Translations under genes and position numbers: made by a program
The notes under the pieces: model-generated
What the model was told of the DNA's origin: nothing
Database searches by the model: none
What the model saw: the letters and a program-made list of their open reading frames with translations, nothing else
In this document: piece after piece, positions 77-41,100 of the stretch
Layout of the letters: each line of letters starts with the position of its first letter
How positions within the stretch are numbered: the stretch's first letter is position 1
Assembly (NCBI GenBank): GCA_028534125.1
Contig: CM052816.1
Coordinates: 17,052,001 to 17,116,000, forward strand
Direction: 5' to 3'
Origin: Lama glama
Lineage: Eukaryota
Length of the DNA stretch: 64,000 nucleotides

Positions 77-233
77 ATGAGGAAGAGCTCCTCCCCTTCC
101 TTGAGTAACTGCAACTCCGTTCTTGCTAACAAAATATTTGGAATTCCACTTGATGAGCTGCAGCAGGGAGGACATCCAGACAATGAGGTTCCGTTCATAG
201 TCCGCCACGTAGTGGACTATATTGAGGAACATG
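77..233 (+). CDS. FAM13B: FAM13B coding exon 1 (exon probably starts at 42 with 35 nt of 5'UTR)
   Basis: Polypyrimidine tract and CAG at 39-41; ATG at 77; MRKSSSPSL...DYIEEH; donor G|GTATAC at 234, phase 1. Confidence 0.95.
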
Positions 234-3200
234 GTATACATTTCCTTACTTTGAGGGCTAGCCTTTGTTTTAATAAACACAACTTATCCCTTTTTGACCT
301 TGGATTTTTTTTTTTAAGTATTCAGAGTCCAAAATACAGTGAGGAAAAACAATAGAAATTCTTTTTAACATTTTAGTGTATCTTTTACTTAAAGTCATAT
401 ACTTACAAATGCTCAGCTTAGACCATTTTTTAGTGGGAGGGGGCGATAGGAATATTTTTAATGGATACTAGGGGGTTGGATAAAACAGAATATCCTTCAG
501 GATAGAGAGAGTATGTTTTTAGATGTATTATTTGCACATGTTTAGCCATCAGGGGAGCCAAGAATGGCTTTCCAAAACTATGAATATTAAGTTGATTGGA
601 GAATGAATATTTATGGCCAGGTATTGAAGTTGAAGCTTATTTAACTTTTGCCTTGAACTAATATAGGAGGTCTGGAGCAACAAGGACTTTTTCAAGTCAA
701 TGGAAATGCTGAGACAGTGGAGTGGCTTCGGCAGAGATACGACAGTGGAGAAGAGGTGGATTTGGTTAAGGAAGCAGATGTTCCCTCAGCTATTAGTCTT
801 CTTAGGTTTTTCCTTCAAGAACTTCCTGAACCCGTTATCCCTGGCAGTTTGCATATTCACTTGATGCAGCTTTCTCAAGGTAACATAATCTGAATCTTAC
901 CAATCAGTCATTTAACATTAATTTCAAAGTTCTTACCTTTCAGAAATCTTGACATGTAAGCAGTAATTATAGTAATTCTGAGATTAATTTCTTAAGTTCC
1001 CATTTGGGGACAGATATTCTTTGGGGTTGTATTGTCTAGTTAAAGGAATGGCAATTTCTTAGATTCCTGTAGTGTTATTTACTTTTTATGATTGGTAAGC
1101 CTAAGGTATAGGATGATAAGAAGAAGGAGAAAAGGCAGGAGACAAGACAAGGAGTAGGAGGGAAAAGAAGAAAGAAAAAAATATATATATGTGGCAGAAT
1201 GTCTGATAATAGCCAGTGGTGTTGCTTAGTGGTGATGTTACTATGTTTATCCTTGGTGTGATAGAACATCCTAGCAAAAGCTAGAAGATAGCTTCATTTC
1301 TAAGTTTGGAATATACCTAAAGCTTGTTCTTAGACACCAGCCTGAAGGAATTAAAATATCATATTAGACATCAGACACTAAGCCAAGTGAAGAAAAAAAC
1401 TGATTTGTCTTTGTTGGGTTGGTTTTTCAGTGTGACTAAAAGTAGGACTTAGCTGGAATGGACAAGAAAAATATAGATAGAGGTAGGCAGAAAGGTAAAA
1501 GAACCAAGATTTGAGGAAATGCTTCTGTTCCTAGAGCTAAATGACATTCTTATGTCCATAATGCAGTGACATGTTTCATTATATAGGAAAGTTTATGAAG
1601 TCAGCATGTAATACAATTGACCCTTGAACAACACAGGTTTGAACTGTGTGAGTGCACTTATATACATATGCTTTTCAGTGAATATGTACTTCTCTACATG
1701 ATCTGCAGTTGGTTGAATTCACAGGAACCACAGATATGGAGGGCCGACTGCAAAGTTTTAAAAGGGTTTTCAATGGTGTGGAGGGTCGGTGCCCCTAACC
1801 CCTGTGTTGTTCAAGGGTCAGTTGTATTAAACATTTCTTGAATGTTTAAATTGTTTTTTTCTGGCTTTTTTTGTATTACGGAATGTTTTTAATTTTTTGA
1901 ATTGGGACTTGTAGAGAAATTCAGTGATGTTAAGAAATTATAACTACTTCCTTAATTGCTGTCATACTTGGACCTTTTATGTTTGTATCCTTAAGCAGTG
2001 TATAGTTAGAAGTGGGATTTCATTTTGAGAGTATTTATCCATCTTACTTTTTCTTAAATTTAAACATAGGCCTAAATTAGTGGATGCCTCTTATTTATGT
2101 ATGAAGGTCAACACAAGGATATCTTACGACTCTCTTACATATGTTCTCCTCTGTACAGCTAGATGATGGGGCTCACTTTGAACTTGCTATATTCTAGAAG
2201 GGTTAGCCTGATTGAGTTTTGTTCTTTTATTGTGCCACCTGGATCAAATAACAGATTTCAGAATGAAGTGTCATCAGTGTCACCTTTTTTCAAAGTATAA
2301 CTTTATTTTTTTCTCCCAACAAGTGCTACATTTTTTCAGAAGCAGTTTGCATCATTAAATATGTAATAGAACTGATGTGTTAGAGTTCTTTGAGCCCTTT
2401 TTATTCCTTTGAGACATTCTTTTTGTTTTTATAAGGCTAGAGTTCCATTTTCCCTTGTATTAGCTGAATTGTAGACAGGTCTTTAAAGTTCCAGGAATCA
2501 GATAATATTTCAATTTTGATTGAAAATTTATGAGTGAATAAGTGGATAAGATTTAATGGTAAGTCACTGCTTCTCATTGATGCTACCAGTCAGAAGCTAT
2601 TTTGTCAGTAGGATTGTCATTTTGATTGGTATTCATTTAAAAGTATGACAGTGTCATGCACTTTGTTATTTATGGAATTACGCTATATATCTTACTAATT
2701 AGTTTTATATCCTCATTCACTTGTGAAGGAATTTAAGGCATGAAAAAATGCTTGTGGCCCATAAGTCCTTTGGTGTCACGAGAAGTCCACCTTTCTCCTC
2801 CATTCCTCATTTACATAACCATTAGCATGTGTATGTATGCAACACACACACCCACATATACACTCACTTCTTTAATAGCTATGCAGATAGATGTGGCAGA
2901 CTTGAGGTGATGTTTGCATTTCTGTTATAGAATTTACTTGTTCATTCTTTAATCATTCTTTTGGGAAGCTGTCTAGGTCTTTGGACAAAGATTACACCCT
3001 CCATTTATTGTAGATAACTGTTATGTTAATATTTTGATTGACATTCACAAATACATGAGATTAGTGCTTTTAAGATCATGAAGAGAGCATTTCTGCAGTT
3101 GCATTTGAGTTAGTGTTTTTTAAAAAAGTGATTTTTGTTTTCTGTGATAGCAGGATATTGTAAAGTGCCATTTCTGGTGTGGTTGATCTTTTATATACAG

Positions 3201-6200
3201 CAGGATTTCACAGTCTTGGCATTCCTGATATTTTGGGCTGGATAATTCTCCCTTTTTTCAACTTGTGTTTTAATAATAATACTAATTTTCATAGCTCATC
3301 ATCCTTATAGCCAACTATTTTTATCCATTTCTCAATTACAGCAATTATATCATAGTTTTTGTTTTGTTTGGTTTTTTTACTTTTTTTTGGTAAACAAACT
3401 TTATTCTAGGAAGAGCAACTCATTGAGAGATGAAACTTAATATTTACATATATGTACTGTTCATTGTTTCTAAGAACAGGTTAGAGCTTTAGCTTTTTAA
3501 ACTTACATAATAATCAAAGAAATAAAGCCAACCGCAAAATAAGAATCAACAGAATGCAGTAATCCAATCATAAAGGACAGTCAAATGTGCTTACACATAT
3601 TCAATAAATCAATTTTCTAGGTTATAAATAATAAGTAGTTCATTTTTGTCCTTTTTTAGATTCCTGTAAGCGATATCATAGGGGATTTTTCTTTTTCTTT
3701 CTGGCTTACTTCACTTAGAATGATGATCTCCAGGTCCATCCAGGTTGCTGCAGATGGCATTATTTTATTCTTTTTTATGCCTGAGGAGTATTCCATTGTA
3801 TATATGTGTATGTATATATGACATATCTTCTTTATCTACTTATCTGTTTGATGGACAATTGGGTTGTTTCCTTGTCTTGGCTATTGTAAATAGTGCTGCT
3901 GTGAACATCAGGGTGCATGTGTCTTTTTGAATTATATTTTTCTCTGGGTATATGCCTAGGAATGGGATTGCTGGATCATATGGTAAGTCTATTTTTAGTT
4001 TTTTAAGGAACCTCCGTACTGTCCTCCACAGTGGCTGTACCAATTTACATTCCCACCAACAGTGTAGGGAGATTCCTTATTCTCCACACCCTCTCCACCA
4101 TTTATCATTTGTAAACTTTTTAATGATGGCCATTCTGTCTGGTGTGAGGTGAAAACTCATTGTAGTTTTGATTTGCATTTCTTTAACAATTAGTGATGTT
4201 GAGCATCTTTTCATGTGCCTTTTGGCCATCTGTCTGTCGTCTTTGGAGAGATACCTATTTAGGTCTTCTGCCCATTTTTTGATTGGGTTGCTTTTTTTTT
4301 GATATTAAGCTGTATGAGCTGTTTGCATATTTTGGAAATCAGTCCTTTGTCGGTCGCATCATTTGCAAATATTTTCTCCCATTCTGTAGTTTTTCTTTTC
4401 GTTTCTTGATGCTATCCTTAGCTCTGCAAAAATTTTTATGTTTAATTATATCCCATTTGTTTATTTTTACTTCTATTTCCATTACTCCAGGAGCTGGTTT
4501 AAAAAATACATTGCTGTGATTTATGTCCAAGAGTGTTCTGCCTATGTTTTCCTCTAGTTTTATAGTATCTGGTCTTACATTTAAGTCTTTAATCCATTTT
4601 GAGTTTATTTTTATATGTGATGTTAGAGAATGTTCTAATTTTAGTCTTTTACAGGTAGCTGTCCAGTTTTCCCAGCATCACTTGAATAATTCTTTAATAT
4701 AGGCGCTGTCCTTGAATTTTAAGATATTTAGTAGGATCCTTGGCTTCTACCTACTAGATACTACTGGTATCCCCTGTCCCCAAGTTATGACAACTGTTCA
4801 TTGTTAAATGTTATCAACCATTGGTTTAGGCCATGATAGTTTGTAATATTTATAAAAAATGTTACAATGCTTGAAAGAATTGCTGGGTCAGGGAAGACTT
4901 CTTTGATAGGTACATATGTTTTTCCTGGTTATAATTTAACTAGGAAGTAGGCTGAAAAGGAAAAAACATTTAAGCAGGTGTGTTTTATTTACACACACAT
5001 AACACACGCACAGAGAAATGCTTTTCTGCCTTAATTGAAGACTTCAGATGCAGCCTGAAAGGTGTAAATATTTTTGTGTACTAGAAATGTTCACTAACAA
5101 AAATAGAGCAACATAAACAGTATCAACTAAAAATAGTTTAGCCCACAATCTTACCACCCCATCAAGTCAAATCAAATGTTTTAGTAGTCTAGCATCAGTT
5201 ACTGTGTATTTTTTCAGCTCTTCAACTCATTTTTATTGAAACCTGGCTTTATGCTTGGTACTGTTTTAGATTCTGGGAATGCAGAGGTGAACAAAACTGT
5301 ATAAAATCTGCCATCATTGAGCTAAAGTTATAAAGCGCCTAAAAGGAGAGTTAGAAGAGAAATTGATGATAAGCAAAATAAATATGTGGGTGTATTAGAT
5401 AAGTGCTACATAGCTAGAGAGGACATTAATGTAGAATTTGTCAGTGCTGCTGTAGTCATCATATTGATAATACTAGTTGCTTGCATAAATTTTTTGAGTT
5501 GATACATGTGATTTTTCTTAAATGATCCTTTTCTGCTAAATGTAGATTGTTAAAAATTTCCATTAAATATAGGCACAGTAGTCTAAAAGATGTTAATCCA
5601 GTGATTGTTCTATTCTGTTATAAAAACAAAGTACCTGGACAGTTGGTAATACTATGAAATACAGAAGAATTGTTACTAGTTGCTTTTTATAGTTTAGGTC
5701 AAACTCATGTGACTGTAGCCTTTCCTGTATAACCTTTTCCTTTTCTTCTTAGACCTGTGTTATTTTGCAGAGATGGCCAATATCATGATCATAACTTTTT
5801 ACCAATAATATTTTTACCAAGAATTAATTTTTCAATTAATTTTAGGAACCTAAAGAAAAATACAGGCTGAAATATGATTGGATTGATTTTCACTATTGAA
5901 GCAATAAATTGCTTCATTTTGAGGGTACCTCTGTGAAATCACTTCTTCTAAGTGGGACCCTCACCAGTCAGTGGGGTTGATACAGACCTAGTTTCTGTTA
6001 ATGAAAACTCACTGACATAAACACAGGGCTTAGCTTCTGGTACCTAAAAATTCACTTGGACACAGAAACCAACATCAGCTTAGAGGAGAAAAACAAATGA
6101 GAAGTGGAATTCCTTTTTATTTAGTTCTACTAATATTGCTGAAGTTAGCTGTTCTTTTTCAGCATGTTAGAAGTAGAAAGTCACTCTAACTGTTCCTTCC

Positions 6201-9200
6201 GTGTTTTTCCATTCATTCTGATACTATTAGTTGGTTAAATTGCTTCTTATCTTTGCTTATCTGGTGGTTGGTGTTAACTGGTATTGGCCATCGCCTTTTG
6301 ACTTTTGAGAGTTGGCACTAATTTGGAAACACAGGTATAGTCATGCAGGGGACAGTATGATGAGAATTTAAAAAAATAAATTAAAGAGAATTGTGGCCAG
6401 TGAGTAATACATGAGGAAAACATCCTCCAGTGATTGAGGATTGAGTTCTTTCTCCAACTCTTCCACTCAGTCAGTGAAATGCAAAGCCCTAAGGCATTTG
6501 GCCTGTAGTAGAGGAAGTGATGAGGTTTTGAATTGTTATAGTAGAAAGGTGATGTGGGTGGAGTAATGTGAACCTGGCAAAATATCTGAGCTTTCCTTTT
6601 ACTTCATTAAAAAAAAAAACCTGTCATTATGTTTTATAGATTATAATAACGAAGATGAATTTGGAAGAAAGTTGAGGTTCCTCTTGCAACAGCTTCCACC
6701 TGTTAATTACAGTTTGTTGAAGTTTCTGTGTAGATTTTTAGCCAATGTAGCATCACATCATGAAGAAATTTGGTCTGCAAACTCTTTGGCTGCTGTCTTT
6801 GGTCCAGATGTCTTCCAGTAAGTCTTTTCACATATTTTTGTTTACTTAAAAAATAATTGATTATATGAAAAAGAATCATTGTACTATCTCCCAAGGATCA
6901 CAGGTTGCTTGATGAACCATTATCTTTTATAGTAGCTCTGATTAATTTTCCCAGCATTTCTGTGAACTGTATATAAATTAGGTAGGCTCTACAGATGGGA
7001 AAACTGAGGCCCAGTATGATGGCATAAATAGCTCAGGTTTATAAAGTGACTCATTGGTTTCTTTTAACTTTACCTGTGAATTATTTAAGAACTCTCAATT
7101 CAGTTGGGACTTTTATTCTTAGTATTTACACAGATGTGGAAGATCTGAAAGAACAAGAAATAGTGAGCAGGATAATGGCTGAACTTTTGGAAAATTACTA
7201 TGAGTTTTTTGAGAATGAAGAGGAAGAGTTTTCATCTAATGATTTGAGTTCAATTACTGAACAGGTGAGAATATTTTAAATATTCTACTTGGAGTTTTTG
7301 CCGTTGTTTTGTTTTTTTGTCTTTTGTTTTTGTTTCTTTGGGAAGAATATGCTCTTGAGGGCATGGCCCAAACTGGTGGAATTTTTAGGTACTAAACTGA
7401 AAGCAATTTCTTGGTTATTATATGTAATCATAGGTGACACATCTGTGTAGTATATGAGTGTAATATTTTTTCTGAATAACTTGTCCTCGATTTGGGTAAT
7501 AGGAAAAAGGAATTGAAGCCAGAGTATATGGTAGATTATATGGCTTTTTTGTGGTTTTTTTCCTGTTAACTTGAGCATTGTTTATTTTATAAGAATAGTG
7601 TGTTTTTTTTGTTTTTGTTTTGCAAAGAAACTGCTATCATAGGGGAATGTAGGCAAAGGTTGAGAATTAGAAAGTAGAGGGAAGGATTGAATGCAGATTT
7701 AACGCCAGCTTTTAAAATTGTTTTTTTTTTGGTTGAATTGGCAAGTAGGTATAGCAGGACAATCATTTTCATTAATGGGAAGCATTAGGAGCGTAATAGT
7801 TGAGGTTGCAGATAATGCTTTAACTCTGTGACTCTTCAATATTAAAACCTGTTTCTCAAGCAGCATTATGTTTTGTTGTTACTGCTATGCCTTCATGGTT
7901 GAGACTATAAAAGATCTTAGTTAATTTTTTCTTTATGAAGTGAGAATATTGATTCTGAGTAATTGTAATTGATTGTAAAGCCACATTAATCCACACGTCT
8001 CAGTTTTAGAATTTGTGATTTAGGTGTATGTGGGGGTTTTCTTTTGTATTTCAGTGAAATGATTTGTCAAGTAAACTTTTTATGTTAAAACCTACAATGT
8101 TATTTATGTTTTGAGCATGAAGTGGGGCTGTTACCTTTTTTTTTGACTAATTCACCTGATTAGAAAAAAATAAGGTAAAATTGACAGTGAAATGTCCTGT
8201 TCTTACCCATACTTACCCATTCCCTCTAATTGGCTTTTATGTGTTTTCCTAGAGTTTCTTTATGCAAATATAAGTAAATATTTACTCTCAGTTTTTTTTA
8301 ATGGGAAAGTAGTATACCATACATACTATTCTGCACTTTGGTTTTTTTTTTTTTAATCAGTCAGTAGTATATCTTAGATATCTTTTATTGAAATGTAGAG
8401 AACATATTCTTTTGTTTTTGCATCTGCATAGTTACTTATTGTATGAATGTAACATACAATTTATTTGTTTATCTGTAACCCACTTGGAAAGGTGATAGTA
8501 CATCCCAGTTTTCTCAGAGTAGTCCTTGTTTATATCTTTCCTGATGTAATTAGTAGCTCCCCTTTTCACTCTCAGATGTATCCAGGTTTAGATGATAAAT
8601 TATATGGTTATGCTATTTATTAATGGACGTTGGACTACTTTCCTTCATTTGCTCTTAAACGATAAAGCAGCATCTCTTGAAAGATCGTTTATCACACAGA
8701 TTTTTATTCATTCATACAGGTATTGGCTCTGATTATGTGAACTAGGAGTTCTATTTCCTGGGTCACCCGTCTTTTATTTAAAAAGGTTCTATACTATTGT
8801 GAACTTTTATAGATTAGTCTTTTAATATTTGAGGGTTATACCTTCCTTAGTTTTTAATACTTTCTTCATGCAAGCATTTTAATCTTTGATTTTTCCTTCC
8901 CTCTTTTTCTTCTTCCCTCCTTTCCTACCTTCCTTCCTCCCTCTCTCTTTTCAACTATCAGGAACTTTTAAGAAAACAGTAACAGATGCCAAATTGTAAC
9001 TTACAGTGTATAAACTGAGGATGAAATCAAATATATGTAAATATATGTATGTGAGGTATATCAAGTGGGTAGAATTTGTAGCCTGAATCAGTGATCCATG
9101 AACTTTTGGCATAATTTTTGAATGTTTCCAACTATCATATACAGTTCCTGACTAAAAACACTTGGTTAAAATAAAGAACTGACACATTTGTTCAAAATTA

Positions 9201-12200: not shown

Positions 12201-15200
12201 ACATCCCTGTTACATATAGCAGTCAGTTTATTCTCGGCATTGCCAGTGCATTTGGCTAGAATGGACAAAAGTATAGGTTTACTACTTAGTGTTTTTAATG
12301 ACTAATATTAATTTATAAAAGATGTTAAGACCATTTATGACTGGTTTCTTCATTGGGATAGTGTAACATATTTCTCACTTGAAAATATTTGGTTGGTTTT
12401 CCTTCTCACATATTTCAGGGTCCTTTTAGTAGAGAGATTATTTGCTTATGTAACCAGTTTGATAACAGAAAATGTTTTTTAGCCTCTGCCAGAAAGAGAA
12501 TTATAACCTTGAGTTGTGCTTAATGGTCAGAACAGTGAGCTCTTCCTTATTGTAAGGTCCAGTCTCTTCATGAAATATTCAGTCTAAATCATTTAGAAGT
12601 TAGTCATCATTTTCTAAAACAGAATTAAGACCTTACAGCAAAATTTTTATGCCCTCCTTTTTTCCACACTTACTCTGTATTGAAGTCGCTTGTTCAGTGC
12701 ACTTGGAAATTGGAGAGATCAATTGAAGTCTTCTTGTAGCTATTAGATTTATAAATCTGGTTAGGAAATGAAGCTTTCTTAACATTAATTAACTACACTG
12801 TGTAGGCTTTTTCATAGTTTGGAGTCTTACTCATTCCTGGTGATGAACTAATGAAATAATTATTTCCTGCTTTAAAATGTTATGTTTGGTTTGCAGGTTT
12901 TTTCTAATATGGAAAATTTGGCAGCTATTTACTTTGTAAGAGAAATTGGTCCTAGGAAATGAAGTGAAACATAAGTTGTATTTAAAATTTTCTTAGAATT
13001 AGTATGTCTTAGATAATGTCAATTAACAGTTTCATTAAACTTTAATTCTGTTTCCTTTTATTTATATAGGTTAATGAACTTTCTGAGGAAGAAGAGGAAG
13101 ATGAAAAGCTAGAACGTATAGAAGAACTTCCAGAAGAGGGTGCAGAAAAATCATCTGACATGCCAGAGGTGGTACAATTAAGGATGACTGAAAACATCCT
13201 GGAACCAAATAGTGTTACAGCATCAACAAGGTACTATTTCAGTTGAAAGGACTTTAGTTTTTGAGCATTTCATTCTAAATGTAAATTCACTCAAGCACTA
13301 ACTCACACAGATTGTAATGGTATATGAAAGATTAGTTTGTATATGAAAAAGAAAAAGAAAATTTTAAAGAAACACTCTTGCTAAGGAGTTTTCAGTTATG
13401 AGCATTTATTCCTGTCTTTAAAAATACCACCTCTTACATATATTTATTCTTCAAGTTTATTTTTTGTTCCATTATTAGTGTACTAGTTGGGTTAGTTAAA
13501 ATTTGAGAACCTTTTGAAGTAGAGTTGCTTGAGAAAGAGTGGTTTAATTGACTGTATTTTCCAGCTTCTACACTGGAACTAGATTGAACTAGGCTATAAC
13601 GAGAGGACTTGTGATCCTTTAAGATGGTGCTGTCTACTTTTGTTCATGTATAAAGTGATATTATGTATTAGGCATACTGGGTGAACTTGGTGTATGTGGT
13701 AGGCTGGAGGCATTATCCTAGCACATAGCTGGAACCATTGGACACACTGTTAAGGAAGCTTTAGAGAATTCAAGAACTCCCTATACATAGTTCTAGGTGC
13801 TCTAGGTTTGCTGAATTCTGTGCTGCTTCTCTGTAAAGCTCCATGATTTACTAACTCTTTCTAATTAGGGGGACAGTTATTTGTTAAGGCCACTAATATT
13901 TTCCATTAAATTTGTGTTCAATAGAAAGGTGGTTAAAAAAGCAGAGGAAGTAATTAAAGAGTAAGACAGCAAAATGTCATTTAAATATAACTAGTTATTT
14001 GGGAAGGGTATTGTTCAGTGGTAAGGTGTATACTTAGCATGCACAAGGTCCTGGGTTCAATCCCCAATACCTCCATTAAAAATAATAAATAAGTAAATAG
14101 ATAAACGAACAAACCTAATACCCTTCCCCCACCCCCCAAATCTTAAAAAATAAATCTAGTAATTTAAGGGAGGAACTATTCAATGTCATTTAGGAAAATT
14201 ACAAAGTAATTGAAAATGTATACTTCTAAATACAACTGTTACATTTTTCTGTGAGCCTCTAGATTTTTATATTGTGTAGTTTCTTCAAACATGATTATAA
14301 TTATGGTATGTTAACATGTCACTCTTCTGCCCCAATTTAACTTTTTAGTTTTTAAAAATTTTATAATTTATTTTTAATTCTTATTTTTTATTGAAATGTC
14401 GATTTACAATGTTAATTTCAGGTGTACAGCAAAGCTATTCAGTTTTACATATACATATATATGTATACATACATATATTTTCAGATTCTTTTCCATTGGA
14501 GTTCATTATAAGAAATTGAAGGTAGTTCCCTATCTTTATCTTATACAATAGGTCCTTGTTGTTTATCTATTTTGTATGTGGTGATGTATATCTGTTAACC
14601 CCAAACTCCTAATCTATCCCTCCCCCAACCTTTCCCCGCTGGTAACCACAGTTTGTTTTCTTTACGAGTCTATTTCTGGTTTGTAAATAAAATTTGTATC
14701 TTTTTTCTTTAGATTCCATATATAAGCAACATCATATGATATTTGTTTTTCTCTGTCTGACTTAACTTCACTTAATTTGATAACCTCTATTGCTGAAAAT
14801 GGCATTATTTCATTCTTTTTTATGGATAAGTAGTATTCCATTGTAGCTATATACCACATCTTTTTTTATCTGTTCATCTGCCGAAGGGCATTTAGGTTGT
14901 TTCCATGTCTTGGCTATTGTAAATAGTGCTGCTGTGAACATTGGGGTGCATGTGTCTTTTTGAATTATAGTTTTCTCTGCATATATGCCCAGGAATGGGA
15001 TCTCTGGATCATATGGTAAGTCTATTTTTAGTTTTTGAAGGAATCTTCATAGTGTCCTCCATAGTGGCCATACCAATTTACATTCCCACCAACAATGTAG
15101 GAGGATTCCTATTTCTCCACACCCTCTCCAGCATTTATTATTCACAGACTTTTCAATGATGGCCATTCTCACTGGTGTGAGGGGACACCTCACTATAGTT

Positions 15201-21200: not shown

Positions 21201-24200
21201 TATTCTAAGTAGCTTGTCATTACTATATTGCTTCTATACAACCTTCATTCGTATGCCCTTTTTTCCTTCTTTTGACTTATTTGTATAAATTTATTAGATT
21301 CAAAGAGTGAACTTTTCTATGGCTTTTGATAAATATTTCCAGACTATTTAAAAGTCTTGGCCCAGTTTGCATTGCCATTAGCAGTGTTTTCCTGAGGACC
21401 TGAAAACAGTGAATTTAAATGGGTGTTCTTTATTTTGTTAATTTAGAATTATGCTTTCCAATAAGGTAGCCACTAGGTACATGTGGTTATTTAAATTTAA
21501 ACTTAAACCAACTAAAATTAAATAAAATCTAAAAATCACTCCCATAGGTGTACTAGCCACATTTCAAGTGCCCAGTAGTCACATGTGGTTACTGGCTACC
21601 TTATTGAACAATGCAGATGAGTAGTTCTGTCATTGCAAAAATTTCTGGATAGTACTGATTTAGAGAGGTAAATTCATTAGGTATTTTTTTTATTTACTTA
21701 CCAGCAAGGTTTAATATCGTTTCAAATGCTTGCTATTAACAGTCGTTTTTAGATGGATTCATTGGAGATTTAGTAGTAGTCAGGATTCCTTAACTGCAAG
21801 GCATAGAAACATCTTGGCTAATGGAAAGAAAAAAGGTAATTTATTAGAAGATTAATAGATACGTTGCAGAGTTGAAAGGAAAAACAGAATAATATGGCAG
21901 ATCTGGAGAATTTAGTAACGAAGTTTCATAGAAGAATCTCTTTAGCATGTGGCTATTGCTGTTAGAGTTCAACCTGTTTCCTTCCATCTGTTGTTCTGCT
22001 TAAGAGCAGGTTCCTGTGTGGTGGCAGGAGACAGGTTCTGGCCTAAAGTGGGTCATGTGTCCATTCATCTTCCAGAGTAGAGCTGCTTGTTGTAATTTAT
22101 GTGTGTACCAAGAGCAGTGGTTGGAGGGAGGAGCTGGTTTGTCCCAGAAAAATAGGACTATTACCAAAAGAAAGGGGTAGGGAATATCATGTAGCAAAAA
22201 TAGATATGTCTGTCACGGTGGTCTTCTTGATTTGGTATTGATATCTATAAATTTCAATTAATATTTATATGTTAATATTTTAGTTTTGGGTGATTGGTTG
22301 CATAATGGTAAAAAATACATTCTTTGATACCCGTCTTTGATGAAAGAGAAGTTAGGGGAGAAATATCCCTAGAAGGCACAGGGCCTCACATATTAGCAGC
22401 TCTTAATAAATTTATTTTAGGAAATTAGTGGATACTATATTGCATGAAACTAGAGATTGAAATTTTGGTGACTTAATGTTTTGTCTCTTTGAGTTTTTCT
22501 GTGAGGTAGCTGGCAAACACTTACTGGAGATATTAGGTTGCCTTTGCCTACTTTGTATATCTCATCAAAAGTAGCTGTAGGAAGTTATGTTAGAGACCTA
22601 AGGGAAGTAAACATTAAGTGACAGTTTAGCAGTTCTCAGATGTTTTAGTCTTAAGAATTATTGTTATGATAACAAATATTAGTTATGGTATAATATTTAC
22701 ATGTTATCATAGTGAAAGCACTTGTTGATTTAAACTGGCATTTCAGAAATATTCTGGTTTAGTAAGCAAACATCATCAGATGATTCTGTTTGGGTCATTT
22801 TATAGTTATGATGACTCTAGAGACCTTTGTTAATGTTGATTTTATACCTGTCCCCATTTACCATATTATATATTTTTTTTAATTGAAGTACAGTCAGTTA
22901 CAATGTGTCAGTTTATGGTGTACAGCATAATGTCCCAGTCATGCATATACATACCAATTACAATATTATAAATTAAAACAGCATACTTAAATTATTGGAA
23001 TTGAACTTTGTTGAGTTGTACTTTGGAAGACGCTTAGTTTTTGAAGCTAAACTGTAGCCACTTATGATCTAACAGCCTTTTTTAATCAATAAATGTCTCC
23101 TCCTGTATTAGTTTCAAGTCAGCAGTTCTCAAAACTTTTTGGTCTTTAGATTCCCTTACATTAAAAAAAAAAAAAAAGAAAAGATTCCCTTATACACTTA
23201 ATTTGAGGACCTCAAAGAACTTTTGTTACTGTGGGTTATATCTATTTGGTATTTACTGGGAATTAAAAATGAGAAACTTATTTTTTTGAAGTAGTAATAA
23301 AATATTACCATTGTATGTTAATGTAAAATTTTTTATCAAAAGTTACTTTTCCAAAATCTCCGAAAAATTTTTGAGTGGCATTGTTTTATGTTTTTACACA
23401 TCTCTTTAATGTCTGACTTAATACATGATAGCTAGATTCTTACATTTTCTTTGGCATTTAATTTGTTACCATATGTTATTTTGGTTGAAGTATACGAAGA
23501 AAATCTGGTGTTTTACAAGTATGCAGCTGGAAAAAAGAGGAGACTTTTTTTACCCTTTTCAGATAATTGCGGATATTTTTCTTTGACAATACACCAAAAC
23601 TCCATAAGTGGTAGTTCTTTAAAGGTTATTTGTGATGTGTAACATGAAACCATATCTGAATTTTTGAAACTCTGATCCATTGGTCTGTCTTGTACTTGAG
23701 AATCTTTTAGCCATGTTTGATTTTGTAATATGATGTACTGGTCATTTGGAAAATACTGCTTCACTGAGTTATTTGGAGCTTCCAAATAATATGTTTTGTT
23801 ATATAATATTAAAATGTATATTCTTTAATGTCACCTTTGATTGCATCAAAAATTTTTAAGTATTGAAATGCTATTGAGTTTATAGTGGAGGATAATTCTG
23901 ATTTTCCAGAATTCTAATTTTTGCTTGAAAACTCAAATTTTATCAGTACTGTCACTTGTTTTTCTCGAAGTGACTGTCTTGCTCATTTTTGAGAAAATGC
24001 CAGATAGTCAAATTGGAATAATGATAGTTTGTCTGCCTATCTTTCAAGTAAAAAATGATGTTCCATGGTAAAATTTTAGCTCTCAAACAAGACAAGCATT
24101 GTACTAAGCTATGCAGCAGAGTTGCTTTATGTGTACTTCCCATTTTGTCATACCAAATGTTAAAAAGAAGTGTACTCAAAGGCGGAGATAAAATTAATAA

Positions 24201-27120
24201 TGTGTATTGCTTCATCAAGGACTGGCTCCTTTTTGAAAAATCACAAGTGGGTAGTGATGAAGAATGCAATGGCCATGGTACAGTTTGGTACCACTTGCCT
24301 GGATTTATGCTAAAACACCAAGTAGTTTTTTTCTACCATTAGGCTTGTATCATTATGCAAATAACAGCACAGTGGAAAAAGGCAAATGTTATGAAAACAG
24401 TTCTGATCTTTTGGTTCACAGACGAAAAGAGAACCAGTGGATTAAAAATTTGTGTATGAGTTGTATTTATTGATTGGTGTATTTGTGCATCTGTTATTTC
24501 TCTACATTGTTTGCCATTATATTGTTAAGATTTCAGCTGAGTTCAGTGTGGGAAAAGTGTTGGGATTTATCGTGTGGACAGCATACGATGAACAAAAAGC
24601 AGAAGTTTTGGTTGCTTCTGAGGCTCAGTCTTACCTGTGAAGTTCATGGAAATTTTAAGATTGTTTCTGATGTGCCTTGTATCAGTAGATGGAAAAATTA
24701 TGGCTTTATATTCACAGGTTTATCTAGTATTTGGCTTTATTTAAATATACAGATGTTAGGAGAATCTTTACCTTTAAAAATTTAAAGAGAGATTGGAGAT
24801 TTCTGAAAGAGTTCTTAACTTTATTTTCCCAGTGTTTCACAATCTTTTTCCTAGGCTGTATTGGAAAGGTTTATTTTGGCTTAGGGTTAGGTAATTTTTA
24901 ATTTATATTCATGTGTGCAGAACTACACATCAAAAAACAGCTAATTGGCATTATTATAAAGTTCACTTAAAGCTGTGCTTTTAATGACTTGATAAAACTT
25001 GGACTTTAGAAAGAATGAAAAATTCGATACTCTATGTACTGTTGATGATAGAGCTTCATTTTTGTTAGTTCATTAGTTTCTGATGGTTTGATTTCAGGTG
25101 TACTGTGGGAAAGGTGGTGCAGTGATTGAGGAACAGTTTAGGGTTTTGAGATTCGTTTCCGCTTCGTTTGGATATCTTGCTATTGAAGAAATGTACCTTC
25201 AGCTGACTGTCAGAAGTGTGAGAAATGTAGTAGTAACCTTTTCCTTTAAGCCATTTAATCAAGTAGTTTGCAAAATATCTCAGTTGACATGCTTTATCAA
25301 TTCACCACATTTTCATTAGCTAGATTCCACTTAAGAGTGTAAAGAAGAGGAAAAAGTACTTTGGTCGGAGTTTCAGAAATGTTGGGTGGGAAAAAGTAGA
25401 ATTTATACTTCTGATAATAAGATAATTTTATTAAAGTAAAACATTTTTTGAAGTACCAGAGCATAATAGATATTGACAGGTTCTCTTCCTCCTTCCTGTT
25501 GCCCTAAAAATAATGCATTTGAAATTTTAAAAATTTACAGTTGTTATAAGTTATTGATTTTCTAATAGTGAGGAATCTTCCAGTTTACTCTTGTCATAGG
25601 CATACAGTATTCACAAGTTAATGCAGAAAGTTAAGAACTAGGTTTTGCTTTTGACTGGAAAGGAATATGTGACTTTGTTTTTATTTTGTTTCATAGATAC
25701 ATTTTTTGAAACTGCAGTTTTTTAAATGGTCCTTTTGGTGGGATTCTGGCATATTATCTGGAAATCATCCTAATTTTAGAGTTGAAAAATTAACCATTAA
25801 TGCTTTTCTGAAAATGTATAATGAGTGAACAGTAGTACTCTCTATTGTGCATATGTTTTAGCAATGTCATATTTGTAGTAATTCTTGATATAGTAGTGTG
25901 ATTAATGAAAACAAACATTGGTTTTTCTACTTTACATTAGGTTAGGCTTAAATATTTTTATAGGAGTTCTAGCCAAATTCAAAATTTTGTCTCCCTTTTC
26001 CTGCCTCCCACAAAGTTGCACAATACTTGGGAAGAAATTTGGGACTGTTGATTGGGTCCCTCCTTGTCAGTAGTGACTTCATGTTGCAGCCTGCTTCCTT
26101 TTAGACTGCAGCTCTGATGGCTCAGCAGTTTTTATAATCTGATCAGCATCCTTTATGGTTTTTAAAGTTGCTTTACCTGATGTTTTTGTTGAGAGATGCC
26201 ACAGTGTTCAGAATGGCTTGCAAGGCTCTGTTATACAGGTAAAGTGATCCTTATCAGATTTAATTGAAGCAGAGATTTTATTGAAGTGTTGTTTATAATA
26301 TTAAATATTTGCAAGTGGGAAATTAAATTAATAGTAGTTCCTTATGATAATTCTATCTGGATTACAGAAAAATAGTAATTGGAATAAATGGTTACAAGAT
26401 TGATTTTATGTTCTCAAGAAGATTATGTGATTTTAGGCAGATTTAAAATTAGAGTTAACAGCAGAAGGGGAAAAAGGTCAGAGAATGACAACAATCTTTA
26501 ACATTACACTTGATTGAAGCCTAAAGTATGTGTGACCTTTGTGATTTATTGTTTGTTCTTTTAATCTGGTCTTCCTTATCTGGTGGTTTAGTGAAAAAAA
26601 AATTGGTATTTTTAGGTGGTCTTTATGGCATCTGTCTATATAGTACCTAAGTAATTCGACATTTAATTTGTCACCATTTATTTTTTTGTGTGTTTTTATT
26701 GATCAGAATTTACATTCTTATGATACATATGCTGTTTTGCTTCTGCTGCAAGTATATAACTATACTGGTAAATCATTTTTTGCAGCTATAGGTGTGTGTT
26801 AGCCCTGGTTTGTACATAAGTGCTTTATTCCCCACAGAACTTGGCCAGAATCTTAAAGAATAATTAAATTCTTTGGAATCTGATAAACTAAATCAGTTCT
26901 TTGTCCTTCAGAAATTCAGAGTAAAGTTTTACAGTCACCTTTGTAGCATCATGAATGACAATCTGATTCATGAAGTACAAAATCTATTTAATTTGTTTAC
27001 TATAGTTTTTCAGAGTCAGGAGAAGGTCCTTACTGAAAGCACCTGTTTATTTGATTATCCTAGCGTATTCTTCAGGGCTGAAGAATCTTTGTAATCTAGC
27101 TTGCTGATTACTATATGTAT

Positions 27121-27163
<43 letters not shown>

Positions 27164-30100
27164 CACATATATATATATTTAATTTAATTCCAATGGCATT
27201 TAAAAGGGGTAAGAAACTGAAAGATCAAATCTTCTGCCTACCCATCCAATCTAAGACTATTAGAACTTCTGTTTGGCTCTTTTGGATGACTGGAAAATTT
27301 TATTAAAAGTTATTCTTTTGGGAGGCTAGATATAGATGTCAGCCAATATTTCTTGAATTTATTAGTATGGGTAAGACTCATCATTGATGAATGTTAAAAA
27401 TTTAAACTCTCAGGTTCTACCTGAGTGGCTTGGGGAGTGACCCAGAAATCTATTTTTTTAAAGGTTTTTTTTTTTAATACTGAGAAATCATACGTACAGA
27501 AATAGGCATGAAACAAATGTATAGCAAAACAGATTAATAAAAAGCAAATGCCTTTGTAACCGCCACCCAGATCTAGAAATAAACACTGATAGCATCCCAG
27601 TAGCTCTCACAATCCTGATCTCCTCTCTCCCCACTAAAGGTAACGACTGTGCCGACTTTTTGACGATCACTTCCTTATGTTTTTGAGCTTCATGAAAATT
27701 AAATCTGACTATATGTATATTTTTGATTCAGCTTCTTTGACTAAATACTGTATATGAGACTTATCCATGTTGTTACATATCACTGTGGTTTGTTCATTTC
27801 CTTGCTGTAAAGTATTCCATTATATGATTGTACCACAATGATCCTATTTACTGTTGGTGGGCAATTGGATTATTTTTCTCTTTGACTGTTGTGAATAACA
27901 TTGCTATGTACATTGTTGTACACAATATGTATGCACGTTTACTGTTCTTTAACTTGAGTAAATATTGACAAGTGTTTTCCATAGCGCTTATTTCAGTTTA
28001 CATTCTCAGTAACTGTGTGAACGTTCTCATTGCTTCACATCCTTGAGTATTTGTCATTTTAATAAGTTCCATCCCCTTTTCTCATGTATATTGACCAGTT
28101 CCTCCTTTTGTGAGATGGCCTGTTCAAGTTAGTTTCCTATCTTTCTGTTGGGTTATCTTTTTCTTATTGAAAAAGGAGGCTCTCTTTTAAAATGTATGTT
28201 GTGAATATATTTTTAGGCTCTCTTTTAAAATATATGCTGTGAATATATTTCCCCTATGGTGTGTTATGCCCTTTTCATATTGTGTCTTCTGATGAATAAG
28301 TCTTAAATTTTTATCAAGTTTATCATTCTCATCCTTTTGTGGTTAATGCTTTTTGTGTCTTGTTTAAGAAATCTTTTCCTAAATACACACTCCTGTATTA
28401 TCTTCTAAAAGCTGTATCATTTCATCTTCCTTATTTAGGGCTCTATCTGGTATTGATTTTTGTCTCTGATGTGTGAGAGGGGTCCAGGTTACCTATTTTA
28501 GTATGGATACCAAACTGTTGCAGCCCTCATTTCTGAGAAGACTGTTCTTTTCCTGCTTTGTTCTAAGTGGCACCTTTGTTCTAAATCAAGTGTATATGCA
28601 TGGGTCTGTTTCTATTCTTTATGTCTATTCTTGTGCCAGTACCATACTATCTTATTTACTTTTTTATGGTATTTGAAGTCTCGGATAGGGTCCAGATCTC
28701 CAATAAAATAAAACTGTCACTTCAGGAAAGGCTGATACAGGTGGTCCATGGCTTACATCCCTATTTAGGGAGTAGTAAGAAAGCTTCCACATGTCTGGTT
28801 TAAGCTTTACTGGCTTGTGTGTATAATTATAAAAACATATTTATGTAAATGTAACCATTTTGATACATGGTTGCACACATGATTTATTTACTTTTTCATG
28901 TTATATTTCCTAATCTTTGTGAATGTCAGTAATTTTAAAATTGTCCACTGACTGTGTGTAGTCTAATCCATTTTATATATTTGTTTGCTGCTATTTTTAA
29001 ACACAATTCTACAAATAAGGTAAAACTAAAAAAAAATTTTAATTGAACTATAGTTGATTTACCATATTGTTTTAGTTTCAGGTATACAGCAAAGTGATTC
29101 AGGGGTGTGCATGTGTATTCTTCAGGTTCTTTTCCATTATAGGTTACTACAAGATACTAAATATAGTCCCCTGTGCTATACAGTAAATCCTTGTTGTTTA
29201 TGTGTTTTATATAGTGAGATATATGTGTTAATTCCATACTCCTAATATATATGCCCCCACCCTCAATTTTCCCTTTGTAACCAACCATTGTTTGTTTTCT
29301 CTGTCTGTGAGTCTATTTTGGTGGGGGGAGGTAATTAGGTTTATTAATTTTTTTTGATAGAGGTACTGGGGTTTGAACCCAGGACCTCATGCATGCTAAG
29401 CATGTGCTCTGCCACTGAACTGTACCTTCCCCCTGTGAATCTTTCTGTTTTGTAAATAAGTTCATTTATATTATATTTTAGATTCCACTTAATAAGTGAT
29501 ACCATATAATACTTTTCTTTTTCTGACTTACTTGACTTAGTATGGTAATATATAGGTCCACCCATGTTGCTACAACTGGGGGTATTTCATTCTTTTTTAT
29601 GGCTGAGTAATATTTCATTGTGTGTGTGTGTATGTTTGTACACACCACATCTTCTTTATCCATTCACCTCTTGATGGACACTTAGGTTGCTTCCATGTCT
29701 TGACTGTTGCAAATAGTGCTACTGTGAACATTGGGGTGCATGTATCTTTTTGAATTAGAGTTTTTTGTCTTTTCCGGATATATGCCCAGGAGTAGGATTG
29801 CTGGATCATATGGTAAGTCTGTTTTTAGTTTTTTAAGGAACCTCCATACTGTTTTCTATAGTGGCTGCACCAATTTACATTCCCACCAATAGTGTAGGAG
29901 GGTTTCCTTTTCTTCCACATCCTCTTCAGCATTTATTATTTGTAGCCTTTTGGATGATGGCCATTTTGACTGGTGTGAGGTGATACCTCATAGTTATGAT
30001 TTGCATTTCTCTAACAATAACGTTGTTGAGCATCTTTTCATGTGTCTATTGGCTATTTGTCTGCTGTAAAATTTTAATTATAGAATCTAGATGATGGAGC

Positions 30101-32133
30101 TGAGGGTGTTTACGTACAATTTTTCAACTTTCCTGTAGTTTTGAAAATTTCCATAATAAAACGTTAGAGATATCTTCAACTAGAAACATAAGGAGGGAAT
30201 CACAGCAGGACAGTAGGAGTGGTGTGCTCACGATATAATTGGGCCCCATACCCCATGGGTGGGTGACTCACAAATTGGAGAATAATTAAAGTACAGAGGC
30301 CTTCCCACAGGAGTGCGAGTTCTGAGCCCCATATCAGGCTCCCCAGGGTTCCAGCATTGGGAGGAAGAGACCCCAGCATATACGGTTTTGAAGGCAAGAG
30401 GGGCTTAATTGCAGAAGCTCTATGGAACTGGGGAAAACACAGACTTAATTCTCTTGGGAACTGCAGACAGAAACTCGTGTGTGCCGGGACCGAGAGCAGA
30501 GGCAGTGATTTTGTAGGAACCTAGCCCAGACCTGTCTGCTGGTTTTGGAGTCTCCTGGGAGGTGGGGAGCTGCTGTGTGGCTCACCCTGGGAACATAAAA
30601 GCTGGTGGTGGACATTATGAGAGTGTTCATCTACATGAGCTTTCCTGGGGGCTGACATCTTGCTTGAGTCATTAGCTCCAAGACTTAGTCCCACCCAACA
30701 GCCTGTAGGCTTAAGGGCTGGGAAGCTTTAGGCCAAACAACATTCTGAGTGGGAACACAGCCCCACTCATCAGCATACTTCCTGACCCTGCAGTTGCTTC
30801 TGGATATGCCCCTAGACACGGCCCTTCTCAGCAGAGGGCCAGGACCAAGCTCCAGCCAGTGGGCAGGTACTGAATCCTTCTGCCAGGAAACCTGCGTAAG
30901 CCTCTAGTTCAGCCTCACCCACCAAGGGGCAGATACCAGAAGTAAGAAAACAACAATCCCACAGCCTGTGGAAGGAATCATAAATACAGGTCAGACTCCA
31001 TCCTGGGACCAGCTGGACCCTGGCTCTTGGGTGACAAGAGGGACATACACTGCTGAGATGCATAGAATGTCTCATACAGAGGGCCATTTCTCCAAGGTGG
31101 AGAAATGTAACTAACCTGCCTAAAAGTACAAATAGAAATTTAGACAAAATGAGGTGGCAGAGGAATATACTCCAGGCAAAGGCACAAGAAAAAAATCTCA
31201 GAAGAGATAAGTGATGAGGAAATAGGCAATCTACCTGAGAAAGAATTTAGAGTAATGGTTATGAAGATGATCAAAGAACTCAAGAGGAGAATAGATGCAG
31301 AGAGTGAAATTTTTAGCAAAGAGTTAGAAAATATAAAGAATGCCCAGAATTGAAGAATACAATTACTAAAATGAATAATACACTGGAAAAAACCAAGAAT
31401 AGAAGAAATGAGGCAGAAGAATGGATCAGTGAGCTAGAAGACAGATTAGTGGAAATCACTACCATAGAACAGAAAAAAGAATGAAAAGAAACAAGGATAA
31501 TTTGAGACCCCAAGGATAACATGAAGCACACTAATATTCACATTATAGGGGTCCCAGAAAGAGAAGAGAGAAAGTACCTGAGAAATTATTTGAAGAGATT
31601 ATAGCCGAAAACTTCCCTAACTTGGGAAAGAAAATAGTCACCCTAGTCCAGGAAGCACAGAGAGTCCCACACAGGATTAACCCAAAGAGGAACACATCAA
31701 GGCACGTAGTAATCAAATTGACAAAAATTAAAGATAAGGAGAAAATAATAAAATCAGCAAGAGAAAAGCAACAAATAACATACAAAGGAACTCCCATAAG
31801 ATTATCAGCTGATTTCTCAGCAGAAACTCTGCAGGCCAGAGGGAGTGGCACGATACATTTAAAGTGATGAAAGGGAAAAATTTACAACCAGGAATATTCT
31901 ACCCAGCAAGACTCTCATTCAGATTTGATGGAGAAATTAAAAGCTTCACAGATAGATAAAAGCTAAAAGAATTCACCACCAAACCAGCTTTATAATAAAT
32001 GTTCAAGAAACTTCTCTAGGTGAAACAGAAAAGGCCACAGCTAGACACAAGTAATTGTGAGGGGAGTAGGGTATGAATACAAGTTTTCCAAAATGCATTT
32101 GAAATTAAGATATCAGGAACTTGAAACAATCGT

Positions 32134-32171
<38 letters not shown>

Positions 32172-38100: not shown

Positions 38101-41100
38101 TTTTGCTTGTTGTAATGTTTTTTGAGATTCAGTTTATTGCATGTGTCAGTTGTTAATGACTTTTATTAAAAAAATATGCTATATGTATTCCATGGTAGGG
38201 ATATTCCACACTTACAAGAAATTATCAGACTGGTTTCCAAAGTGGTTGAAACGTTTTACTTTCCCACCAGCATTATTGTGAATGTTCTAGTTGCTTCACA
38301 TCCTTACCAACGCTTGACTTCTAATTTTAAACGTTTTGGAAATATCTATATCTCATTGTGGGTTTAAGTTGCACTTTTGATAACTGGGTAAAAATGAATC
38401 TGTTCTCTATGTTTTTATAAGTATTGATAAACACTGCGGTGCAGAATTTGCTAAGGAAAGTGTGTTACAGGCACAGTGAATGTGGTGGTCTGAATTTTAG
38501 TACCAAGCCTTTTCCTTTTGTAGTTTCAGAATATCCTCTGAATAGTAGCATGTACTATTACTTCTGGAAAGGCGTACAGGGCCAGTCTTGAGGCTTCCAT
38601 ACTACCCTAGATGGGTACTGTTGTTGGGCCAGTAGTCAGTTTTTTTTCCCCCTTCCAGGCTTGGAATAGGTCATTATTCCTCCAAGCGAGTGCCATGTGA
38701 AGTTGTTGGCTATACACACACAACATACATAGAGTATGTATGTTTAAGGGTCTTCTTCTGTGAAAAATAATTTCTTTAGAAAATTAGCCGTAGAACTTAG
38801 CACATGTTCTCCTGATTTTATTATTAATATAGTGTAAATGTGGCACTTTTCAGCATGTTTTGTGATCATTTAGTATGAAAAATTTTATAGCTAATTTCTT
38901 TCTTTGATTGCAGTGCCCATATATCTCCCATCAGCATCTTACCAGCCTCTGCAGAGTAAGTAGTATAACTTAGAGAAGACATTGAAAGATTAAAAAAAAA
39001 AACACTAAACGGGAAGTTAAAATCATGTATTTATTGTGCTTACTTTAGAGGAAGGATTGTACATAAAGCAGTGAAACTAATTAGTATTTTATGTACTGCA
39101 ATAGGAACCAGTGAATGTATTGCACTAATATATGAAATAAAGGTGAGCTTTTTTCAGGTGATTTTTTTTGTTTGTTCTTCTGAAATGATTGAAAAATATC
39201 AATAGATATTTTTATGAAGTTTTCTTTAAGAAGTAGATGTCACATAAAAAATATGGACAGTACCCTTAAAGTTTCTTTTATTTAGCTGAGTGCTGGTAAA
39301 TTATTTTGCTTTATAAATACAGCTTTAAAACGTCTATTTAAGGGAGGAGGATATAGCTCAAGTGGTAGAGTGCATGCTTAGCATGCACAAGGTGCTGGAT
39401 TCAATCCCCCATACCGCCTCTAAAAATAAATAAATAAACCTTATTACTTCCTTACCATCCCCAAAGTTTTATTTTTAATTAAAAAATGTCTAGTTAAATG
39501 GCTTTATATATAGTAGCGAGGAATGAGTTATTGGGACAAGTGATTATTTCTAACTCAGTAGTAATGGTAACATTATAATTGATTTATGTAATATCTATTA
39601 GGCAAATCATTTTAAAATTTAAGTCAATATCATGTATTCTTTTTATATATTTCTTTTACCACTCTAGTCTGTTTATTTAATACCATAATATTTTTTAATT
39701 GATTGTGGGTTTTAAAGTTGTGTTTATGTGACCAAATACCCAGATAGGGTGACTGCTTCTCACTAAAATGTGTTCTGTTTTGTAGCATTTTAGAAAGAAC
39801 GATTAGAGCAGCTGTGGAACAGCACCTTTTTGATCTGCAGAGCAGCATAGATCATGATCTTAAGAATTTACAACAGCAGAGTCTGGTGTGTAATAATGAA
39901 GCAGGAAGTGTTAATTGTGATGGGAAAGGATCTAATAACCAGTAAGAAACTTCTAAAATATTTTACTTTTATTTATTGTTATGAAATTGCCTTTTTATTG
40001 TATTTTTTCTTAAATAATGGGTTCTTATCTTACTTGAGGATTTCTGAAAGTCAGTGTGAAAAGTGAATTTGTACATATGTGCGTATAAATTGTATATACT
40101 TCTTAACATTGAAAACCTCATAAATATTCCATTAAGGTAGTAGACATTAAGTCCAACACACCCAGGTTTTCCTCCCTGAACACCAGATGAAATAGTGGGT
40201 TTACCTTTAGGGACTATGTTGTATGAAAAATAACTTAAGAAAAGCTAGACCTATACTTTCTGTTACAGATGTTCACACCATGAGAGACATACAGTGATCT
40301 AAACAAATAGATCATAGGGACAGCAGATTGACATCACCCTTAGTGCATATGGTCGTTGAGTGAAGTGAATAGAATCATCTTTTGCTATTTAACTTGTTAT
40401 CCCGTGCCACCAGCCTTTGCCTTTCCTGCATGCTGTTTTTTTAGGTTAGCTAGTAATAGTTGAATTTATGTAAGTTAAAAGTACCTCTGTGTACTGTATG
40501 ATGTGTGATATTACTTCACTCTTCATCTGACTTGTTACGTTTAAATGACAAAATCTTCATTTCCTTTTTGATTACCTCAGCCCTGCACTCTAAGATACGT
40601 AGGTGCCTTTCCCTGAGACCACAGTGCAATGATTTCCTAGTTCGCATTTGTCAGTTTTTGTTTGGGGACAGATCTGCAGAACAGCATAGTTCATGATCTT
40701 AAGAAAGCTGTGCCCAAATTTGGAGAATTCATAAGAGGGCCCAAAAAGCAGATGATTGGGTAGAATGATTTTGTTGTTATTTTTGTTAGGAATTAGGTTT
40801 TTAAAAGTCCAAATATGTTAAGTATACTAGACTAACTATTAAGTATGAAATGAAACTGAAAAATTAATGGATATGAAAACCAATGGTTGAAGTATGTTTA
40901 TTTTAGGAATACCATATTGTACAACTGTAGGTGTGCCATGTAGTCTGTGTGAATGGCATCACCAGCCTATGCAGCTCTATGTGATGGTCTGTTTGCTTTG
41001 AATACACGATTAGAACTAATACAAGTGGATCTATAGGGAGTATTTGGGTTGAATATGAAGGAAAGAAGTGTCTAAAAGGTGAAAATAGTCGGAAAATGGA

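Follow-up and report, generated by a model that had tools for sequence, protein, structure and literature searches.

Human FAM13A is expressed from two start sites, one of which yields short forms without the RhoGAP domain (PMC11376246, PMC13336431). The question raised by the present locus is whether its paralogue FAM13B carries a second start of the same kind inside an intron. A preliminary description of the DNA proposed such an internal promoter and first exon, in parallel with the long/short two-promoter design of FAM13A, which is indeed found in print (PMC11376246, PMC13336431, PMC8836216).

The window, meaning here the whole 64,000-nt stretch of DNA that was analysed, is on the evidence of its sequence camelid FAM13B, with most of the gene lying on the plus strand. 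The exon at 39787-39939 was 100% identical to camel and alpaca FAM13B in a protein search, and the alpaca and dromedary FAM13B proteins can be placed exon by exon from 77 to 63277 with order and phase kept. Four landmarks of the gene matter for what follows:

77..7264, plus strand: first four coding exons of the long form, containing the RhoGAP domain (residues 39-183, Pfam) and missing from the short form
13070..13230, plus strand: acidic linker exon of the long form, ending in phase 2 and using the same acceptor as the start exon, with which it would compete
38914..38955, plus strand: 42-nt optional exon, predicted splice partner of the start exon, which comes after the start peptide in 34 of 34 proteins
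39786..39941, plus strand: exon bearing the ERTIR-region motif common to FAM13A and FAM13B (protein alignment)

The phase-2 end of the acidic exon is followed by a host intron of 25.7 kb (13231-38913), the length originally given for it. The 42-nt exon is skipped by 26 of the proteins compared, and a further optional exon of ~32 residues, at about 10595-10699, is present in some long isoforms. Self-matches of the window reveal large repeated stretches that flank the start exon at about 14300-20400, 29000-30000 and 30500-36200; from their translations we take them to be LINE-1-like. A short insertion at about 39340-39435, between the 42-nt exon and the next exon, is presumably a tRNA-like SINE. 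The start exon had been placed in an apparently repeat-free island, and by self-comparison segment 23623-29036 is free of matches elsewhere in the window.

The candidate start exon is composed of the following elements:

26105..26212, plus strand: likely 5' untranslated part of the exon, with an in-frame stop at 26135-26137 and ATGs at 26117, 26155, 26180 and 26196
26213..26238, plus strand: start codon and 26-nt coding part (MACKALLY and two bases of a Ser codon)
26239..26244, plus strand: phase-2 splice donor GTAAAG, GTAAAT in the bird DNA compared with it

ATG 26213 has the strong Kozak context claimed for it, with A at -3 and G at +4, and opens eight codons reading MACKALLY, followed by AG and, at 26239, by GTAAAG. 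The in-frame ATG 26180 and the in-frame TAA 26135 lie where the preliminary description put them, as do TATAA at 26133, TGACTTCA at 26074 and CTTCCT at 26094. Not included there were an inverted CCAAT at 26051-26055, an acceptor-like AG at 26103-26104 and the further upstream ATGs 26117, 26155 and 26196. By coordinates, the proposed phase-2 join of 26213-26238 to 38914-38955 and 39786-39941 does give an open frame, and the predicted short protein, counted with the alpaca tail, is 641 residues long. One of the 502 plus-strand pairs of an ATG and a phase-2 GT in the intron, that at 26213, combines a strong Kozak context with at least 5 of 7 matches to the donor consensus, a figure that is generous since the 5/7 cut-off is the candidate's own score. 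TATAA and CTTCCT are individually weak motifs, occurring 132 and 30 times in the window. No CpG island was found, a point against an internal promoter. Rfam gave three sub-threshold matches, none of them on the candidate start exon.

The same eight-residue start is found in 34 of the 422 proteins compared, 18 RhoGAP-less and 16 long. Restricting a search to proteins 220-700 residues long gave 28 listed matches, several of which start with or soon reach MACKVLLH followed by the 42-nt exon; the other sources were a peptide-weighted search (best 120 of 1208 matches), a search of 1.84 billion representatives (best 150 of 887) and three cluster look-ups. The RhoGAP-less carriers come from 15 species (three marsupials, eight birds, two turtles and two teleosts), together with one assembly protein, and have the peptide at or close to their N-terminus. 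The long carriers, in which the exon stands in place of the acidic exon, are 15 bird entries and a coelacanth entry, and include the curated chicken protein NP_001264674.1 and coelacanth XP_014340154.1. The Pfam RhoGAP domain was found in P0052 and P0153 and not in P0125 or P0136.

In 16 distinct sequences no change is seen at M, A, C, K, L, L or the final S, in contrast to the preceding 17 positions, which vary; this comparison is of sequences with enough upstream residues, which excludes the teleosts and P0136 as they begin at M. The teleost peptide reads MACDILLQ, and the RhoGAP-less proteins of the two teleosts and P0136 open at the peptide or two residues earlier. The coelacanth sequence upstream of the peptide is unrelated to that of the other carriers. 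Only the camelid departs, by two replacements (V>A and H>Y), from a peptide unchanged from coelacanth to marsupials. When the marsupial, bird, turtle and coelacanth peptide is placed in the six frames of the window, its best position is 26213 (score 33, next 24); the teleost peptide also prefers 26213, only narrowly (23 against 22), and the variant peptide of P0136 has its best place elsewhere. Cysteine 3 is nearly invariant, P0136 being without it, and one may speculate that it could be a modification site.

A RhoGAP-less FAM13B, as had been claimed, is thus represented by peptide-bearing proteins in marsupial, bird, turtle and teleost gene models. Monodelphis X14 (XP_056667318.1), Dromiciops X4 (XP_043837900.1) and Trichosurus X3 (XP_036606556.1) have the same peptide, and the start exon is likewise matched in the RhoGAP-less FAM13B of passerines and crane (X4/X5), Mauremys, Liparis (TNN75880.1) and Knipowitschia (CAL9706441.1). 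These models share with the camelid locus the gene and, as predicted for the latter, the join to the 42-nt exon and the lack of RhoGAP; the camelid exon is the orthologue of their start exon. The non-placental models are automated predictions rather than described isoforms, and those of amniotes gain 17-106 residues through upstream in-frame ATGs, which the camelid lacks. Whether the exon is annotated had been left undecided: automatic annotation includes it outside placentals, while none of the placental matches listed bears the peptide. The vertebrate conservation of ATG, frame and donor, proposed earlier as a check, is borne out by the peptide kept in marsupials, birds, turtles, coelacanth and teleosts, donor conservation being read in DNA from a bird-like contig and a close relative only.

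This contig, L001, is the one metagenome contig (a 4.9-kb locus) that matches a degenerate pattern of the exon; a scan of genome contigs found no match. It is read as bird host DNA because it encodes the same N-terminal stretch as passerine models, and both the ATG and the phase-2 donor are kept in it. Against the whole window, blastn gives a single match, a gap-free block of 66 bases at 26046-26111 (82% identity, E 4e-12), with a local alignment score of 72 against 28-36 in 15 shuffles. The block and the signals within it are:

26046..26111, plus strand: non-coding block conserved between camelid and bird (54/66 identical), possibly a proximal promoter, or a branch point with 3' splice site, or both
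26051..26055, minus strand: inverted CCAAT box, within 11 bases identical in the bird
26074..26081, plus strand: TGACTTCA, CRE/AP-1-like, 7/8 bases kept in the bird, overlapping a branch-point-like TTCAT
26090..26104, plus strand: pyrimidine tract and AG forming a putative acceptor (pyrimidine share 0.76); the exon would begin at 26105, in frame with ATG 26213

The inverted CCAAT may be an NF-Y site, and we take TGACTTCA and the overlapping TTCAT to be CRE/AP-1-like and branch-point-like, respectively, from consensus sequences. The preliminary description had also offered TATAA and CTTCCT as nearby promoter motifs. Neither is kept in L001; TATAA 26133 was therefore rejected as a TATA box and CTTCCT as an ETS site. 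TGACTTCA fared better, since it is largely kept in the bird, if not wholly identical.

Conservation around the exon is one-sided: the 66 bases upstream are kept in the bird and the intron past the donor is not. Conservation restricted to the upstream side is expected of a first exon rather than of a regulated cassette. Between camelid and bird the coding part shows 5 silent and 2 replacement changes, whereas the 17 codons that precede ATG 26213 show about 6 silent and 17 replacement changes (Fisher p 0.07 for the contrast). As silent-heavy changes are seen only from the ATG onward, coding constraint appears to start at 26213. The camelid carries two out-of-frame ATGs upstream, the bird none, and ATG 26180 was rejected as the main start owing to its weak context and lack of conservation.

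The stretch of 17 residues just ahead of the start (L001 3119-3027, minus strand; window 26162-26212) is nearly identical in birds and turtles, where it includes an in-frame Met, largely kept in marsupials and drifted in the camelid. It may be an N-terminal extension or a constrained leader lost in placentals.

With the peptide present in proteins from marsupials to fish, and the ATG, donor and upstream block kept in the bird-like contig, the start exon is ancient and real. As to its role, the reading preferred here is given about an even chance: 26213-26238 would be the start of an ancient alternative exon served by an internal promoter at 26046-26111 and spliced to 38914, giving a RhoGAP-less protein of ~640 residues.

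The conserved block could serve another purpose, and the exon be the second of the short form rather than the first. Its branch point and 3' splice site (cut between 26104 and 26105) would then account for the block, and the promoter would lie further upstream, before an unconserved non-coding leader. This is judged unlikely. The acceptor at 26090-26104 reaches the pyrimidine share of the gene's best known acceptors; the bird has it too, and a branch-point-like motif lies about 24 bases upstream of it. Turtle model P0250 (XP_039339288.1) matches the bird DNA from the exact first base past the AG, with 0/30 forced differences right after AG 26104, whereas ahead of the AG the match falls to shuffle level. 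For the 52 upstream residues of the model, no match was found in the bird contig or the window. Read-through of adjacent DNA was rejected as the origin of these upstream residues (at least 13 forced differences per 45 bases; 11-15 in shuffles). The abrupt edge of the match suggests that P0250 is spliced in at the equivalent of 26105 from another exon. Together with the chicken form, this entry suggests that the exon is entered in more than one way: among protein models, those of turtle, chicken and coelacanth splice into the exon, while the teleost proteins and P0136 begin at the ATG. Yet the turtle evidence is a single model at the protein level, which could be an assembly or model artefact. 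Moreover, the bird contig displays no other conserved block in the 1.9 kb upstream, and the CCAAT-like 11-mer is conserved upstream of the branch region although splicing does not need it.

It is also judged unlikely that this ancient feature is now decaying or barely used in placentals, the camelid copy being a relic. No placental protein with the peptide was present among the 120, 28 and 120 listed matches of three protein searches, despite the many isoform models of alpaca, pig, horse and whale, and the peptide-weighted search does put peptide-bearing proteins first (62-85 bits, at most 51 for the rest). This absence is not proof because the matches are cluster representatives only: two short bird forms (P0404 and P0406) sat inside a long-form cluster, so placental short forms can be hidden likewise, and in this length range the human isoforms seen were 13 and 18. 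These two FAM13B isoforms (NP_001372907.1 and NP_001372927.1) are also RhoGAP-less and placental but, unlike the short form discussed here, start at internal methionines of upstream long-form exons. The camelid-specific replacements and out-of-frame ATGs would fit a relic as well. Against it, the ATG, its Kozak context, the frame and the donor are undamaged, the block aligns with the bird without indels, and most changes in the coding part are silent.

A relic would also explain why no junction was seen in contigs. None of four RNA-type contig sets, from a relative ~98% identical, has a joint or a loose end at 26238, and the donor is crossed unspliced. The check is a weak one, as contigs lose rare splice forms, three of the four sets were guessed to be RNA and exon 38914 lies outside the stretch covered. 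The contigs of this relative extend evenly over 25000-27000 and look like intronic RNA or DNA. A word share of 0.45 in RNA-type runs was accordingly rejected as the mark of an exon-sized piece, the ~98% identical relative covering the whole stretch. Contig depth is higher at 26461-26602 in X6, where one contig has a loose end at 26461. This end resembles what we take to be a library adapter and was rejected as a transcription start, being a probable library artefact. A break between two contigs near 26183-26200 (X8) has an overlap of 18 bases only and was taken as a coverage gap. The close relative has zero differences across block and exon, which is not significant (1.8 expected, P 0.17).

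A third possibility, judged improbable, is that the exon serves chiefly inside the long transcript as an alternative exon, either substituting in frame for the acidic one or acting as a poison exon that leads to nonsense-mediated decay. The 16 long proteins, curated chicken and coelacanth among them, do bear it internally. Chicken NP_001264674.1 and coelacanth XP_014340154.1 have the same exon and donor as the camelid; unlike the use proposed for the latter, they include it as an internal exon of a RhoGAP-containing protein from which the acidic exon 13070-13230 is missing. Of the 10 internal joins tested in the camelid, those from the exon that ends at 7264 to 26147 or 26168 keep the frame open, and the other 8 meet a stop within 12 codons. 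However, the pyrimidine tract of the chicken entry site is poor in the bird contig (0.41), and most other internal bird models are perhaps projections of the chicken one, to judge from their early accession numbers and shared chicken junction. Mainly internal use would also leave unexplained an invariant ATG of strong context at the edge of conservation, and the fish proteins that begin there. The camelid acceptors 26147 and 26168 (exon to 26238) are weaker and lie downstream of the in-frame stop; a chicken-like internal exon is possible from them.

That the ATG and donor arose by chance in an AT-rich intron, where short motifs are individually common, can be dismissed since peptide, donor and upstream block match other vertebrates at one and the same place.

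Under the preferred reading of an internal promoter, block 26046-26111 would drive the short transcript through the inverted CCAAT and the CRE-like motif, placed about 50 and 25 bases before 26105, with transcription probably starting near 26105-26130. Ribosomes might pass the weaker upstream ATGs by leaky scanning and initiate at 26213. Splicing of 26238 to 38914 would then yield about 641 residues lacking the RhoGAP domain and retaining the ERTIR helix motif and the C-terminal region common with the FAM13A short form. Such a protein is predicted to act as a non-GAP scaffold form, likely tissue-restricted. The exon may well be a hybrid, first in some transcripts and internal in others; in the one case it would open the short protein, in the other it would take the place of the acidic linker in the long form.

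Automated non-placental annotation already includes the exon, as does, in internal position, the curated chicken entry. Loss of an N-terminal domain through an intronic start is a common kind of mechanism. Human FAM13B, at 5q31, is an atrial-fibrillation gene. A risk locus for this disorder acts through FAM13B, for which the authors invoke mechanisms other than RhoGAP activity (PMC10714175); a term search of the main text of that paper found no discussion of FAM13B isoforms. No short or internal-promoter FAM13B is described in the literature searched, which covers few subscription papers, and PMC6456441 names FAM13B merely as a paralogue. If human FAM13B makes such a short form, measurements of expression, knockdown or knockout at gene level would blend two proteins under separate control. 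For FAM13A, separating long from short altered the reading of mouse data (PMC11376246, PMC13336431). The same questions would arise with a conserved short FAM13B, namely which form the risk enhancer controls and which form a knockout removes. To address them, the start exon supplies one exact junction and one promoter candidate. The wider proposition, that the two-start design is older than the FAM13A/FAM13B duplication and has persisted in placentals, human FAM13B using a hybrid exon for a RhoGAP-less isoform so far undescribed, is advanced only tentatively and seems rather doubtful at present.

Among the closest known systems is the short form of FAM13A. Its isoforms b-e (NP_001015045.1 and others) are RhoGAP-less products of a paralogous gene with optional exons of 14 residues, and its second start lies downstream of the RhoGAP exons and ahead of those that lead to the ERTIR motif. 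The FAM13A RhoGAP domain is coded by exons 2-5 and the curated short forms have 697, 683 and 669 residues (PMC13245938); these length steps of 14 residues match 42-nt exons, as in FAM13B. FAM13A has one further 14-residue segment ahead of the shared one, unlike FAM13B. The short start of FAM13A is near intron 7 (PMC8836216) and, by domain order, the intron position of the FAM13B start exon relative to the shared exons matches it. The two systems differ in that the FAM13A short form is well expressed and studied, mouse and rat having retained this form only (PMC11376246, PMC13336431). They differ also in that the FAM13A RhoGAP is active on RhoA (PMC11376246), while recombinant FAM13B had no GAP activity on four GTPases (PMC10714175); as long FAM13B would thus be without GAP activity, what distinguishes its two forms may be binding or location and not catalysis.

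No short FAM13A protein was among the matches listed in the protein searches. A trace of the FAM13A start exon itself is possibly found in the snake FAM13A model X4 (P0259, XP_026528432.1), whose residues 333-342, MALETVSLQS, stand directly before the matching junction. A loose pattern retrieves only P0259 and two teleost FAM13B starts from 101,284 residues in 150 proteins, a result to be read knowing that the pattern was made after seeing them. It is possible that the P0259 segment is the start exon of the FAM13A short form caught internally in a long model, like that of chicken FAM13B. Paralogy of the FAM13A and FAM13B start exons is suggested by their position, by the published accounts of FAM13A and by this one snake model, and the descent of both from a start exon that existed before the gene duplication is plausible.
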